Below are positions 5,653-45,713 of a DNA stretch of 60,454 nucleotides, piece by piece. The stretch comes from an uncultured Erysipelotrichaceae bacterium. Its GTDB lineage: Bacteria; Bacillota_I; Bacilli_A; RF39; UBA660. Both the position numbers and the translations under genes were made by a program. Position 1 is the first letter of the stretch; every line of letters begins with the position of its first letter. The DNA is taken from positions 1 through 60,454 of the forward strand of contig CADCIZ010000002.1 of assembly GCA_902801685.1 (NCBI GenBank), written 5' to 3'. Below the pieces are notes generated by a model. It saw nothing but the letters and a program-made list of their open reading frames with translations, did no database searches and was not told the DNA's origin.

Positions 5653-5792
5653 AAAATACTCTTGACTGTTAGTGAAAATAATGTATAATATTAGTTATTG
5701 GAAAGAAAACAAGTGAATGAATGATAAATGTTATATATAATTTATATAAGTCCAATATTTTAAATATTTAATTAATTTTAAAGGAGATTTAT

Positions 5793-6740
5793 ATGAAAAA
5801 TGAAATTGTGTTATTTAAAAATCAACATGTAAAATTAGAAGTTAATATGAAAGATGAAACTGTATGGTTAAATGCAGAACAAATGTCGTTATTATTTGAT
5901 AGAGACTATAAAACAATTAGAAAGCACATTAACAATGCGTTACAAGAAGAATTAGATAGTTCAACTGTCGCAAAATTTGCGACAGTTCAAAAAGAAGGAA
6001 ATAGGGAAGTTACACGTAACATTGAATACTATAATCTCGATGTGATTATAAGCGTTGGTTATCGTGTAAAATCCAAAAATGGTATTATATTTAGAAAATG
6101 GGCAAATAAAATCTTGAAAGATTATTTAATTAAAGGATATGCAGTTAATGAAAAAAGGCTTAAATATCTTGAAAAGACTATCAAATTAATTGATATTGCT
6201 GGTAGAATTGATACTGAATTAAAAGGAAGTGAAGCGCAGGAGATAATTAAAGTTATAAATAATTATTCAAATGCTTTAAACTTACTTGATGATTATGATC
6301 ACAAAAGGATTGTTAAGCCAAACGGAACTAAAAATAATAATAAAATAACTTATGAAGATTGTATGGATGTAATTAGTAAACTTAAGTTTAATAGTGATAG
6401 TAATTTATTTGCACTAGAGCGAAATGAAGGTTTGAAATCTATTATAGGTGCGATATATCAATCATATGATGGAGTTGATTTATATCCAACAATCGAAGAA
6501 AAAGCAGCAAACTTTTTATACCTAATAACTAAGAATCATACATTTATTGATGGTAATAAAAGAATAGCAGCAACACTATTTATATATTTTCTTGGAATAA
6601 ATAATATTTTATATAATAAAAACGAACAGATTATTGATAATAATACACTTGTTGCAGTTACACTGTTAATCGCACAATCTAATCCTAAAGAAAAGGATAT
6701 ATTAATAGATTTAGTTATGAATTTTTTAAATAGAAATTAG
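5793..6740 (+). CDS. RhuM-family domain fused to Fic/Doc domain
   Basis: ETVWLNAEQMSLLF..YNLDVIISVGYRVKS..FRKWA (RhuM); HTFIDGNKR (Doc-type motif). Confidence 0.88.
   Translation: MKNEIVLFKNQHVKLEVNMKDETVWLNAEQMSLLFDRDYKTIRKHINNALQEELDSSTVAKFATVQKEGNREVTRNIEYYNLDVIISVGYRVKSKNGIIFRKWANKILKDYLIKGYAVNEKRLKYLEKTIKLIDIAGRIDTELKGSEAQEIIKVINNYSNALNLLDDYDHKRIVKPNGTKNNNKITYEDCMDVISKLKFNSDSNLFALERNEGLKSIIGAIYQSYDGVDLYPTIEEKAANFLYLITKNHTFIDGNKRIAATLFIYFLGINNILYNKNEQIIDNNTLVAVTLLIAQSNPKEKDILIDLVMNFLNRN
5963..5987. repeat. 25-bp perfect intragenic palindrome
   Basis: AACTGTCGCAAA-A-TTTGCGACAGTT, 12-bp arms. Confidence 0.95.
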
Positions 6741-37268: not shown

Positions 37269-38290
37269 TCACTCCTTATCACAACATACTTTTTCTGTTT
37301 CATAAACTAATTTATCAAAGTCAGATATATAATTTCTATCTTGAATAACTGCATACTTATCATATTCACCCTCAGCTTTTTTCATAGCTTTATCATGGCT
37401 TATTTTTCCTTTACCTTTTAGTACATCATACATGTTAATTTTAAATACTTCTTCTAAAGATGTTACCCAATCATAATCGCCATTGGTATATGACGAGTTG
37501 CTCTATTTTCAGCAATATCAAGATAGATATTAACTAAATCATTTAGTTCTTTTAACTCTTTTTCATCCAAATAATTTTTAGCAATTCTAACATCACTTTT
37601 TAAAATTTTACCATTAGGGGAATTTTTCCAATTAGTAAGACCTAAATGTTCCTTAGTAGAATCAACTCTATCATATATTATTTCTGCAGCAGTTTGATGG
37701 GATATTGCATAATGAAATTTATTTTGAATTGTCTTATAAAACGTTTTAGCAGTCTCACTATCTTTAATATAATCAATACTACATTCAGCAAATATATCAG
37801 TAATTTTTTGATAAAACATTCTTTCACTAACTCTAATTAGTTTTATTCTTTCAAGTAATTCATCAAAATATTTTTGATCATTTCTATTTGCTTTCATGAA
37901 TCTTTCGTCATTAAGAATAAATCCTTTTTTAATATACTCTTTTAATATCCTATTTGCCCAAGTTCTAAATTTGATTGCTTTTTTTGAATTAACTCTAAAA
38001 CCTATTGAAATAATCATATCAAGATTATAATATTTGGTTTTATAAGTTTGTAATCCATCATTACCCACATGTTCCATTTTGGAACATGTGCCTATTTCTT
38101 TTAATTCATCATCCCTATAAATATTGTTTATATGCTTCACTATTGCAGGCCTTTGTACATCAAAAAGTTCTGCAATTGCATTTGTATTTAACCATACATC
38201 TTCATCATTTAAAAGCACTTCAATTTTTAAATTATCATTATCATCTTCATAAAATATGATATCATTTTTCTTTTTAATAATATTCTCCAT
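37269..38290 (-). pseudogene. RhuM-family protein with frameshift near 37475
   Basis: RhuM motifs (VWLN..AELF, YNLDMIISIGFRVNS, IRVSERMFYQKITDI, QNKFHYA); C-terminus DWVTSLE..GKISHDKAMKKAEGEY..SDFDK continues in another frame to a stop at 37269. Confidence 0.8.
38066..38090. repeat. 25-bp intragenic palindrome
   Basis: CACATGTTCCA-TTT-TGGAACATGTG, 11-bp arms. Confidence 0.95.
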
Positions 38291-38341
38291 AAAGTCTCCT
38301 GAAATATTCATATTAAGAAAAATCTATAGATTGCTATAGAT

Positions 38342-41071: not shown

Positions 41072-41132
41072 CTAACTAATTTTATCATGATTTAAAAAAA
41101 ATATAAAGAAAGTTCTTTATATTTTCTAATTT

Positions 41133-42272
41133 TTATCCGCTATAGGTAAATGAATTAAGATCTCCATCACCAATAGTGGTGTTGTTATATGCCAATAAAT
41201 AATCTGTATAATCATAACTAATAATTAAACAAGTTTTATAACTTCCCTTTGTAGAAATATCTTGCGCAAAATCATGTGTGCCAATAGTGTATGTACAAGC
41301 AGAACCATTATAAGTACATGAGCCATCTTTATTTAATACTAAAGTATATCCTTCACTTGCTGCTTCACCAATATAAGTACCATACTTTATTGTATAATTA
41401 CCTAATTTAATACCTTCTGATTCTTGTTTTTTCTGTTCTTCGATTTGTTTTTGTTTTTCTTCTTCTATTCTAGCATTTTCTTCTTTAATACTTTTAATAC
41501 TATCTTGTTTAGTTTTTAACTCTTCTTTTAATTTATCAGTAGCCTTTTTATTAGCCTCAATAACCTTACTTATATCTTCATATATTTCTATACTTTTCTC
41601 TACTCTTTTCTTAAGTTCATTCTCAACTAATTTACTATCAAAGGTAAATGAATTATCTTTAGTATCTACTTTAATAAATGTTTCTTCAAACTTAGTTAAA
41701 GTAACCTCTTTACCTGTAGAATCAGTAACTGACTCTTTATCATTTTCATTAAATACATATTTTTCTACCATAACAGCCTTACTTGAATCTTTATTTGTCT
41801 TGCTATTGATTTGATCAGTTAAATTCTTATAATAATTAGAATCATCTGATACAGTATTAGAGTAATAATTATATGTATCTTTTTCGATATTATAGAGTAA
41901 TTCTACACTAGTTGGTTCATTATATACTAATGCATTTACTTTATCATCTTCGATATAATATACATTAGTATAATTATTATCTTCTTTATTATAACTAATA
42001 GTCATAACTGGTTCTTTAATATCAGTAACATTAAATATACTTACCTTTGCATCCTTAATATCACTAGGTAATCCTGCTTTTTCATATAACTTATTTTCAT
42101 TTATGTCTTTTAAATAAAGATAATAAGTCTCTCCCCATGTAGTTTTTAACTTATCACTTTTATTACCAAATATTTTATCTTTAAATAAGTAGCCACATGC
42201 TAATAAACATATAACTAAAATTATACCAATTGCTATAAATAATTCCTTTTTACTTTTCATATATATAACCAC
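41133..42272 (-). CDS. Membrane-anchored hypothetical protein with coiled coil
   Basis: N-terminal hydrophobic helix, EEKQKQ-rich coil, small Cys-containing C-terminal domain. Confidence 0.7.
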   Translation of the reverse strand: MVIYMKSKKELFIAIGIILVICLLACGYLFKDKIFGNKSDKLKTTWGETYYLYLKDINENKLYEKAGLPSDIKDAKVSIFNVTDIKEPVMTISYNKEDNNYTNVYYIEDDKVNALVYNEPTSVELLYNIEKDTYNYYSNTVSDDSNYYKNLTDQINSKTNKDSSKAVMVEKYVFNENDKESVTDSTGKEVTLTKFEETFIKVDTKDNSFTFDSKLVENELKKRVEKSIEIYEDISKVIEANKKATDKLKEELKTKQDSIKSIKEENARIEEEKQKQIEEQKKQESEGIKLGNYTIKYGTYIGEAASEGYTLVLNKDGSCTYNGSACTYTIGTHDFAQDISTKGSYKTCLIISYDYTDYLLAYNNTTIGDGDLNSFTYSG

Positions 42273-45125: not shown

Positions 45126-45713
45126 TTATTTCAACCTATAATTCTTTTTATTATAATTTTTATATGCATTTATTAAATCAATATCCATAATATTTGCCGG
45201 AATACTATCGATATTAAAAAATTGTAATCGTTTAGTTTCTGAATCCCCTTTTAATTCTTTGATATCATTTTCAGTAACATTAGCCAAGTATAGAGATGTA
45301 TTATTATATACTATATCACCATTCGGATAACTATTTTTTCTAGATTCACCTGATAATGTATCTATTAATTCAATATCTAATGGATTTAATTTAATACCTG
45401 TTTCTTCATATGCTTCTCTTACAGCAGTAACTCTTAAATCTTCACCTAACTCTTGGCATCCTCCAGGTAATCCCCATTTATTCCTATCTGTTCTTTCTTG
45501 TAACAATATTTCACCAATTTCATTTCTTATAATAATTGCCGCACCAGTTTGAATAAATGGTATATGACTTATTCTATCATCAAGTGCCATCCTAAATAAC
45601 ACTGGATATCCACCATATTTTCTACTCAATTCTAGCAATTCTTTTTCACTTAAATTCATAACTAATTTTACAAATTCTTCATGTGTATAGTCTCTCATTT
45701 TTTTATAATCCAT
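45126..45713 (-). CDS. NUDIX hydrolase
   Basis: GGCQELGEDLRVTAVREAYEETGI Nudix box; YPNGD. Confidence 0.92.
   Translation of the reverse strand: MDYKKMRDYTHEEFVKLVMNLSEKELLELSRKYGGYPVLFRMALDDRISHIPFIQTGAAIIIRNEIGEILLQERTDRNKWGLPGGCQELGEDLRVTAVREAYEETGIKLNPLDIELIDTLSGESRKNSYPNGDIVYNNTSLYLANVTENDIKELKGDSETKRLQFFNIDSIPANIMDIDLINAYKNYNKKNYRLK

Follow-up and report, generated by a model that had tools for sequence, protein, structure and literature searches.

Why should two RhuM genes of one bacterial genome each carry a perfect 25-bp palindrome within their own codons, at the same place in the gene but with different sequences? The question is raised by a 60,454-nt stretch of DNA (hereafter, the window) from an uncultured Erysipelotrichaceae bacterium (assembly GCA_902801685.1, contig CADCIZ010000002.1, positions 1 to 60,454), for which an earlier note, made from the sequence alone, described the two palindromes and proposed that selection acts on the symmetry of the nucleic acid inside the coding sequence. 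The answer developed here, to which we give roughly an even chance of being correct, is that each palindrome is a cognate, variant-specific intragenic site in duplex DNA for the DNA-binding domain of the very gene in which it lies, probably with an autoregulatory role. The genes and palindromes in question are the following.

5793..6740, forward strand: gene 1, a fusion of a RhuM N-domain with a Doc/Fic toxin domain, 315 aa (assigned by Pfam and PADLOC)
5963..5987: palindrome 1, perfect, 25 bp, with arms of 12 bp and a 1-base centre, inside gene 1
37463..38311, reverse strand: gene 2, the second RhuM gene, of the full RhuM type and PDC-S05-like, shortened by a TAA
38066..38090: palindrome 2, perfect, 25 bp, with arms of 11 bp and a 3-base centre, inside gene 2

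Palindromes at homologous codons of two RhuM genes

On the forward strand, palindrome 1 reads AACTGTCGCAAA-A-TTTGCGACAGTT; in the frame of gene 1 (tcA ACT GTC GCA AAA TTT GCG ACA GTT, translated as S TVAKFATV), it extends from the third base of the S57 codon through T58 to V65, that is, over the start of the first strand of a predicted beta-hairpin wing. Palindrome 2, read on the reverse strand from 38090 to 38066, is CACATGTTCCA-AAA-TGGAACATGTG, and its frame (ggC ACA TGT TCC AAA ATG GAA CAT GTG) gives the third base of a G codon followed by TCSKMEHV. In both palindromes, the first base occupies a third codon position, the centre coincides with the third base of a Lys codon and the last codon is that of a Val; both are located between a helix-turn-helix-like segment and YYNLD. 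The N-terminal 150 residues of the two RhuM proteins are 40% identical, and the BLASTP alignment places the palindromes on aligned residues; the codon description given in the earlier note was exact, and the homologous position of the palindromes in the two paralogues is borne out.

Each of the two palindromes is present in a single copy in the 1.31-Mb genome. They rank second and third among the longest perfect hairpins of the 60-kb window and have the highest G+C content among these. The window-wide count is not significant (three centres with arms of at least 11 bp, against a mean of 1.2 and a maximum of 4 in 60 dinucleotide shuffles at 26% G+C), and taken alone it cannot exclude chance as the explanation; the palindromes are significant because of their homologous position and their conservation throughout the family, which do exclude it.

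Conservation across the RhuM family

The source genome (26% G+C), which comes from ruminant gut to judge by the sequencing runs in which it occurs, contains about 10 RhuM copies, nine of which carry a perfect palindrome at the homologous place, with arms of 9–12 bp and a different sequence in every copy; in the tenth, the arms span only 5 bp. In relatives, 24 of 27 rows have arms of at least 8 bp. The same pattern extends to 79 RhuM-Fic genes from genome contigs with a G+C content of 23–63%, a set that spans Bacteroidota, Proteobacteria, Verrucomicrobiota, Spirochaetes, candidate phyla and cultured isolates, including Pasteurella testudinis, Alcanivorax xiamenensis and Flagellimonas lutimaris. 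When the best perfect hairpin within the 120 nt preceding YNLD was scored, arms of at least 8 bp were present in 81 of the 107 distinct genes, compared with 18 of the 963 other 120-nt windows in the same genes. In a broader survey, which tolerated mismatches and took in another 126 non-identical genes found on contigs of metagenomes and viruses, 223 of the 246 RhuM genes had 9 or 10 Watson-Crick pairs among the 10 at offsets 3–12 from the centre, versus 2 of the 246 control windows; in the out-of-sample set, the palindrome was detected in 91 of the 126 genes. The enrichment of inverted-repeat symmetry across the family, by which the earlier note proposed to judge its claim, is thus evident.

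Two viral contigs contain palindrome 1 exactly, and both place it in a RhuM gene with the KTIGKH motif. The literature that we searched, mostly openly accessible papers without their supplements, returned no description of a palindrome in RhuM genes, in agreement with the remark in the earlier note that none was known.

Selection on the nucleotide sequence

With the centre of symmetry at the third base of a codon, every third position faces another third position across the dyad. The centre was set from the first and second codon positions only, which was possible in 70 of the 107 genes; 243 of the 259 third-position pairs were Watson-Crick, whereas 84.9 were expected from the synonymous usage of each gene, and the same procedure applied elsewhere in the genes yielded 8 of 32 against 9.4 expected. 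Together with the symmetry observed in 223 of the 246 genes, this result strongly supports the proposal of selection on nucleic-acid symmetry inside the coding sequence. As in an operator, the dyad symmetry is conserved beyond the needs of coding.

The codon register itself is less strict. Of the 107 genes, 81 have the centre at codon position 3, 18 at position 2 and 4 at position 1, and in the remaining 4 it falls between two bases, so that the common register noted originally holds for both genes of the window and for most of the relatives but not as a universal rule. Identical 17-mers are found in two reading frames: TGTGCAAAAATTGCACA encodes CAKIAQ in one gene (locus L077) and NVQKLHI in another (L091). 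Furthermore, both orientations of the palindromes occur, yielding AKFA or ANFA in one case and SKME or SILE in the other.

In four rumen metagenomes (X3, X10, X13 and X19), palindrome 1 is the only part of gene 1 that shows a 5- to 20-fold spike in depth (in run X10, the summed contig depth is 902 in the palindrome bin and 67–306 in the adjacent bins), with loose contig ends at 5960–5962 and 5989–6002. Because the spike is confined to the palindrome bin, many otherwise different genes have only this stretch in common. Metagenome contigs around 5952–5995 often stop at the palindrome (with ends at 5989–5990 and starts at 5969–5975); the assemblies are fragmented.

Duplex DNA or an RNA hairpin

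A hairpin in the sense RNA should tolerate G.U but not A.C pairs. Among the 2460 pairs examined, the mismatches include 33 G.T (1.3% of the pairs), 36 A.C and 53 of the transversion type; compensatory changes of the kind expected of a conserved structured RNA are present, but there is no excess of G.T over A.C. The symmetry holds at 90–94% through offset 12 (94% Watson-Crick at k=12) and drops to 46% at k=13, which makes for a sharp edge at ±12. Even at offsets k=1–2, where the bases of a hairpin could not pair, about 68% of 81 genes retain the symmetry, and the centre is A/T-rich, AAA(A/T)TTT. An Rfam search up to E=10 found no family, with four rows at E 7–10 that are far below the gathering scores and at the level of chance. 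Because G.U is not tolerated, the extent is fixed at ±12, the palindrome occurs in two frames as well as in either orientation, and Rfam gave no matching family, the symmetry argues for duplex DNA rather than for a hairpin in the sense RNA.

Nevertheless, the possibility of a sense-mRNA hairpin that is selected for its structure only and tunes the translation or stability of a toxic product deserves consideration; such a hairpin could act as a ribosome pause, as an RNase site or as a target for a protein that binds its own mRNA. The predicted RNAs of the two palindromes fold well (−14.9 and −16.0 kcal/mol, z −5.5 and −5.8, with none of 200 shuffles as stable), the sequence of the stem varies while the pairing is retained, toxin genes are often under post-transcriptional control, and the covariation with helix 2 that is described in the next section would suit a protein-RNA contact as well. 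We nevertheless consider this explanation unlikely given that G.T is no commoner than A.C, that the unpairable central positions are symmetric, that there is no Rfam match and that the length shows no drift; in addition, with both orientations in existence, the loop would be A-rich in some genes and U-rich in others.

Covariation of helix 2 with the half-site

The segment of the protein that varies together with the palindrome is the N-terminal part of the second helix, encoded about 40 nt upstream.

5910..5927, forward strand: N-terminal codons of helix 2 of gene 1, K40-T-I-R-K-H45, the proposed recognition helix, which covaries with the inner half-site
38132..38149, reverse strand: helix 2 codons of gene 2, P-A-I-V-K-H; this PAIxKH type pairs with the TTCC..GGAA half-site

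Covariation was analysed in 77 of 120 genes, after exclusion of those with arms shorter than 8 bp, a centre between bases, an unrecognisable His motif or stops. In pairwise comparisons, similarity in the inner half-site (offsets 3–8) correlates with similarity in the five residues that precede the invariant His of helix 2 (rho 0.476). The values are lower elsewhere: 0.05 for the leader, 0.105 and 0.21 for helix 1, 0.13 for what remains of helix 2, 0.06 for the linker adjacent to the palindrome, 0.12 for the second strand of the wing and 0.14 for the 150 aa that follow downstream. The outer half-site tracks the second wing strand instead (rho 0.54). In 36 non-overlapping gene pairs that were matched for their similarity over the 150 aa downstream, helix and half-site agree without exception (36/36), both being the same in 9 pairs and both different in 27, with a matched-pair Fisher p of 1e-8 for the helix and 0.005–0.44 for the remaining segments. 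The same correspondence is seen at the level of motifs: all PAI.KH genes have (T/A)(G/T)TTCC half-sites, and the KT[IL]xKH type is always accompanied by GTCGCA...TGCGAC (10/10).

A simple rule captures much of this variation, namely, that the residue before the His predicts the bases k5–k3. The rule was derived on the 77 genes and held on the 85 usable ones among the 126 new genes. In the combined set of 162, E is associated with CGG in 48 of 48 cases (18 distinct helix variants, in two reading frames), R with GCA in 40 of 42, K with GCA in 21 of 30 and with TCC in the other 9, and L, M or Q with (A/G)AG in 31 of 32. These pairings match the textbook contact preferences of Glu for C, Arg and Lys for G, Gln for A, and Met and Leu for T. 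The CGG class is translated as Arg in one frame and as Gly in the other; therefore, a purely protein-protein explanation is disfavoured. Within the AKFA class, two synonymous half-sites sort with different helices, GTC..GCG with KT[IL]xKH (10/10) and GTT..GCA with KSxxSRH (8/8; 18/18 together), although the flanks are intermixed and do not sort with the two groups: their likeness within and between the groups is 0.47 vs 0.44 upstream and 0.46 vs 0.47 downstream. Covariation with residues of the helix-turn-helix, which the earlier note suggested looking for, is accordingly found in the correlation, in the matched pairs and in the residue-to-base rule. Specificity residues that covary with the bases of the site are what one expects of an operator, subject to the linkage of the two within one cassette.

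The RhuM genes and the predicted structure of the N-domain

Gene 1 matches PF13310 (Virulence_RhuM) with 96.2 bits, over model positions 1–105 of 252 only, and PF02661 (Fic/DOC) with 44.3 bits, both above the Pfam gathering cut-offs (33.7 and 24 bits, respectively). The match of gene 2 to PF13310 is stronger (287.3 bits, model positions 2–203), and with PF02498 (Bro-N) it reaches 24.0 bits, just under the cut-off of 25.6 bits; gene 1 has no match to PF02498. The catalytic loop of Fic/Doc proteins has the motif H-x-F-x-D-G-N-K-R, and in an alignment of 61 sequences with gene 1, D253, G254, K256 and R257 are invariant, with H249, F251 and N255 at least 90% conserved. The best Foldseek matches of the Doc part are to Doc of P1 (3dd7/3k33); the score against the NCBIfam Doc model TIGR01550 is 31.7 bits, under the cut-off of 38.65. 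Gene 1 also matches PDC-S23 of PADLOC at E=3.7e-124, and the full-length RhuM paralogues match PDC-S05 with values down to 4.7e-146, both being families of candidate defence genes according to PADLOC. The TAA in gene 2 is located near position 204–207 of the family model; a genome search aligned the gene over 37463–38089, with one TAA, and its C-terminal remainder at 37335–37475 on the reverse strand, so gene 2 is probably a recently broken gene or pseudogene. One proposal sees RhuM as a toxin domain of restriction-modification loci that is frequently fused to Doc (available text of PMC3710099), and RhuM is enriched beside invertible hsdS genes (available text of PMC9881135). An assignment of RhuM as a HEPN domain was considered and abandoned in favour of the protein-modifying toxin proposed in the available text of PMC3710099. 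A sequence search of the PDB gave no useful match.

The AF2 model of the gene 1 protein (61-row alignment, mean pLDDT 81) comprises strands 4–9, 14–20 and 23–27, helices 28–35 and 39–52, a beta-hairpin 59–68/71–80, helix 82–92, a long helix and the Doc-like domain. Up to the hairpin, the elements have the order expected of a Bro-N/KilA-N-type domain with strands, two helices and a beta-hairpin wing; in a Foldseek search with the N-domain, the matches were weak and restricted to the APSES domain of Mbp1 (E ~0.4). For residues 1–150, the homodimer prediction attains an ipSAE of 0.64, compared with 0.00 for the best control, a mark reached by 20 of 30 solved homodimers and by 1 of 23 monomers in the benchmark. 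The runs share at least 88% of the contacts, with a partner pLDDT of at least 69, and the predicted interface is formed by residues 82–134, 22–24 and 52–53, which leaves helix 2 and the wing free. The prediction supports a putative symmetric dimer of N-domains, whose presumed reading surface would be free.

A putative operator within the codons of its reader

Three roles were envisaged originally for the palindromes: a variant-specific intragenic operator for the RhuM helix-turn-helix, a hairpin or cruciform that serves as a recombination or processing site, and an mRNA hairpin. The operator fits best because of the covariation with helix 2, the lack of G.U tolerance and the predicted symmetric dimer of the N-domain. 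What the data show is the symmetry, its family-wide conservation at synonymous sites, the DNA-like spectrum of mismatches and the covariation with helix 2, along with a predicted symmetric dimer; binding itself, and any effect of binding, is inferred.

The mechanism can be envisaged as follows. The N-domain, in prediction a Bro-N/KilA-N-like unit of three strands, two helices and a beta-hairpin wing, would dimerise via helices 82–134, and each subunit would read one half-site using the N-terminal portion of helix 2. Since the DNA-binding domain is encoded by the very codons in which the site lies, reader and site would be inherited and exchanged jointly, as one hypervariable cassette of about 150 bp. 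Such a joint cassette would insulate the approximately 10 paralogues of the source genome from one another, and the gene would bring its own control site to any context, whether solitary between housekeeping genes or in restriction-modification operons. Most likely, the gene would repress itself through a transcriptional roadblock some 280 nt from the start of the transcript, or the toxin-bearing protein would be tethered to the locus that encodes it. The distance is counted from the following putative element.

5662..5689, forward strand: promoter-like site TTGACT-16-TATAAT upstream of gene 1 (11 of 12 positions match; a match to the consensus only)

Several observations weigh against a cognate operator. 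Neither a second copy of the palindrome nor a half-site was found at up to 4 substitutions in promoters or elsewhere in the genome (four lone 11-mer matches to the half-site on other contigs are at chance level), and therefore classical promoter occlusion is excluded. Full symmetry over 25 bp is long for one helix-turn-helix dimer, and the arms of 15–21 bp in ORF6N genes (see below) look more like the outcome of selection for a hairpin or cruciform, or of mutational symmetrisation. Gene 2, although broken, retains a perfect palindrome. Helix 2 and the palindrome, being so closely spaced in one exchangeable cassette, can show inflated covariation; the 36 matched pairs are independent in the flanks but not necessarily in the history of the cassette, so that the number of truly independent co-changes is below 36. 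Part of the covariation could be protein-protein co-adaptation of helix 2 and the wing strand, which is opposed only by the two-frame cases and the one synonymous case. Finally, the dimer score is a measure of model confidence.

A hypervariable cassette and its exchange among paralogues

The part of gene 1 that contains the palindrome stands out from its surroundings.

5877..6027, forward strand: hypervariable "specificity cassette" of gene 1, comprising the end of helix 1, helix 2, the palindrome and the wing

When 11 close pairs of genes were compared, the cassette showed 43–76% nucleotide identity, as opposed to about 80–100% on both flanks, and it looks like a specificity module of the kind found in hsdS. 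The first 26 residues of gene 1 (5793–5870) are nearly identical to those of a paralogue on another contig of the source genome (G000:C4, about 45255–45620, reverse strand), and helix 2, the palindrome and the wing differ between the two; this mosaic pattern is consistent with cassette exchange. A restriction-modification context in the source genome was considered and rejected: all 10 RhuM copies are solitary among housekeeping genes.

These patterns bear on the second alternative, in which a DNA hairpin or cruciform serves as a site of recombination or template switching and promotes the exchange of the helix 2-wing cassette among paralogues. The palindrome lies in the middle of the identity trough, with conserved flanks that could support gene conversion; cassette types are reshuffled relative to both flanks; and the outer arms follow the downstream wing and the inner arms the upstream helix, as if crossovers had occurred inside the palindrome and symmetry had then been restored. 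An A/T-rich centre generally favours extrusion of the arms, which in ORF6N reach 21 bp. RhuM genes are enriched beside invertible hsdS genes (available text of PMC9881135). We regard this scenario, too, as rather unlikely. The solitary copies have no linked recombinase; the palindromes of the 10 paralogues all differ and thus lack mutual homology; the joints in metagenome contigs are those expected from assembly breaks at a shared palindromic k-mer; and the correspondence between amino acids and bases is left unexplained.

Quasi-palindrome correction is a known, fast mutational process, and the palindrome might accordingly be self-perpetuating and functionless, with changes in one arm reverted or copied by intrastrand template switching and gene-breaking deletions purged. 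In support of this possibility, perfection persists in broken genes (gene 2, a split copy on contig C25 and the C4 copy), the length of the arms is variable and can grow (from 5 to 21 bp), and coding palindromes are known from the mitochondria of Nematomorpha (available text of PMC6649704). However, a functionless palindrome would need to appear, and then be retained, at a single structural position in no fewer than five gene families and in most phyla, while the control windows of the same genes show none; moreover, it predicts neither the ±12 boundary, nor a chemically sensible helix-to-base code, nor the hypervariability of helix 2, and we consider it improbable.

A site for some other factor acting in trans, be it a regulator of host or phage origin or a nuclease, seems very improbable, even with the outer motif AACTG...CAGTT common to RhuM and an unrelated-looking Bro-N family and with defence contexts in which phage-host conflict over specific sites is plausible (available text of PMC3710099), because one factor could not read dozens of inner sequences, ten of them, each unique, in one 1.3-Mb genome, and because the covariation is with helix 2 of the gene itself.

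Comparison with known systems

Intragenic operators and the autoregulation of toxins are known, whereas a family-wide, codon-embedded cassette in which reader and site co-diversify appears to be new. Lac O2 in lacZ, gal OI in galE and the CcpA cre boxes in open reading frames are intragenic operators or roadblock sites. Like these, the RhuM palindrome is a dyad-symmetric site that lies past the promoter, within coding sequence, in a position from which a bound dimer can impede elongation or form a DNA loop; unlike these, which lie in target genes of a separate regulator and are not known to keep a fixed place across a protein family, it lies in the DNA-binding-domain codons of its own putative reader, is kept at synonymous positions (223/246) and diversifies with the recognition helix. 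Type II toxin modules such as Phd-Doc are autoregulated by the DNA-binding partner on a palindromic operator, and gene 1, too, ends in a Doc-like toxin domain; in contrast to Phd-Doc, the DNA-binding part is fused to the toxin, the palindrome is in the open reading frame rather than in the promoter, and the solitary RhuM copies have no separate antitoxin gene next to them. The Roi protein of phage HK022 is said to bind a site within its own gene, reportedly in work of Clerget and Boccard from 1996, and its N-terminal helix-turn-helix domain is of the Rha/KilA-N type (pRha, 25.2 bits, below the cut-off, along with ANT); if the reported binding holds, Roi would be an experimental example of a protein of this type that binds within the sequence encoding it. 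As a precedent, roi was rejected: the gene has no strong palindrome, with best arms of 6 bp.

In the available text of PMC6649704, mitochondrial genes of Nematomorpha are described with coding palindromes of up to 284 bp that are kept alongside protein function. As in RhuM, these are perfect inverted repeats in functional protein-coding genes, with both arms translated; unlike in RhuM, they are long, numerous and not bound to one family, and have no cognate reader proposed in that text. The target-recognition domains of type I hsdS genes share with RhuM a hypervariable cassette between conserved flanks that is reshuffled among paralogues, and RhuM genes are often found in the same loci as hsdS (available text of PMC9881135 and PMC3710099). 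Unlike in RhuM, the hsdS cassettes are not known to contain their own target sequence.

Palindromes in other gene families

The same type of arrangement was observed in several other families.

DinD genes (NF008573): arms of at least 8 bp in 3 of 7 and of at least 7 bp in 6 of 7
285-aa Bro-N family: arms of at least 8 bp in 12 of 15, several with AACTG...CAGTT ends
ORF6N genes: arms of at least 8 bp in 17 of 22, up to 21 bp; controls 2 of 21
DUF1016_N/YhcG nuclease genes: arms of at least 8 bp in 18 of 26, mostly of 9 bp, just before LSWSHY; controls 1 of 25
Classic phage-type Bro-N genes (L138–L146): arms of at least 10 bp in 1 of 9

The last count rules out the palindrome as a property of every Bro-N domain. 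A generalisation that we put forward only tentatively, as a design common to defence and toxin genes, and that may well prove too broad, is that the N-domains of RhuM, RhuM-Doc, DinD, the second Bro-N family, ORF6N and DUF1016_N/YhcG all carry cognate palindromes in their own codons. Such palindromes would make up a portable, barcode-like cassette of reader and address by which the protein docks on its own gene, either for autoregulation or to hold the toxin until the chromosome is disturbed, with a residue-to-base code (E-CGG, R/K-GCA, Q/M/L-AAG) that could be read from genomes.

In ORF6N genes, the palindrome is found at nt ~157–170 of the domain match, with the peptide LRSxxxTS, for example, in the source genome at G000:C14:27223–27486 (L371) and C6:12656–12925 (L380). 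The palindromes of genes that combine DUF1016_N with the YhcG PDDEXK nuclease typically have a CAC-T-GTG core (loci L336–L365); those of the source genome include G000:C6:31017–31041, C11:6408–6431 and C17:3801–3825, with nearly the same 25-mer in two of the copies. The DinD palindrome is located at the DHF..V.KM segment, and the copy in the source genome (C37:6935–6958) has 12-bp arms. In dinD of Escherichia coli K-12 (NC_000913.3; L168, 5761–6585), 10 of 11 pairs are formed at FEEILD, with one T.T mismatch. Altogether, the source genome contains about 10 RhuM, 9 DUF1016_N and 4 ORF6N genes and several Bro-N/DinD matches, several of them broken; such a gene load is unusual for a genome of 1.31 Mb.

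Implications

Few uncharacterised genes accompany restriction-modification and defence loci as commonly as RhuM and its fusions. If the palindromes are indeed sites for their own genes' readers, every RhuM member would come with a testable target sequence, hundreds of natural reader-site pairs would become available for the study of the protein-DNA recognition code, and the self-regulation of a toxic single-gene cassette wherever it lands would be explained; the proposal would also be relevant to dinD, an SOS gene of E. coli K-12 in which the feature takes a weaker form. The RhuM palindrome is also a clear case of strong selection on synonymous sites, and palindromes of this type break metagenome assemblies locally and could mislead codon-based evolutionary analyses.

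Other candidates and other hairpins

Three further explanations of the palindromes were tried and rejected. An intrinsic terminator would require a T-run, which is absent, and the single "terminator-like" call, at 38066–38090, is antisense and a consensus match only; a frameshift site was ruled out by inspection of the codons around the palindrome centre; and the spacing does not fit the consensus of a LexA-type box. The longest perfect hairpin of the window, at 41098–41125, has 13-bp arms and 11% G+C and is located just past the stop of the reverse-strand open reading frame 41133–42260; it is probably a terminator. Elsewhere in the source genome, two near-identical G+C-rich palindromes of 35–37 bp, which make up a repeated hairpin element, are present on separate contigs, outside long open reading frames (G000:C62:234–270 and G000:C42:11896–11930).

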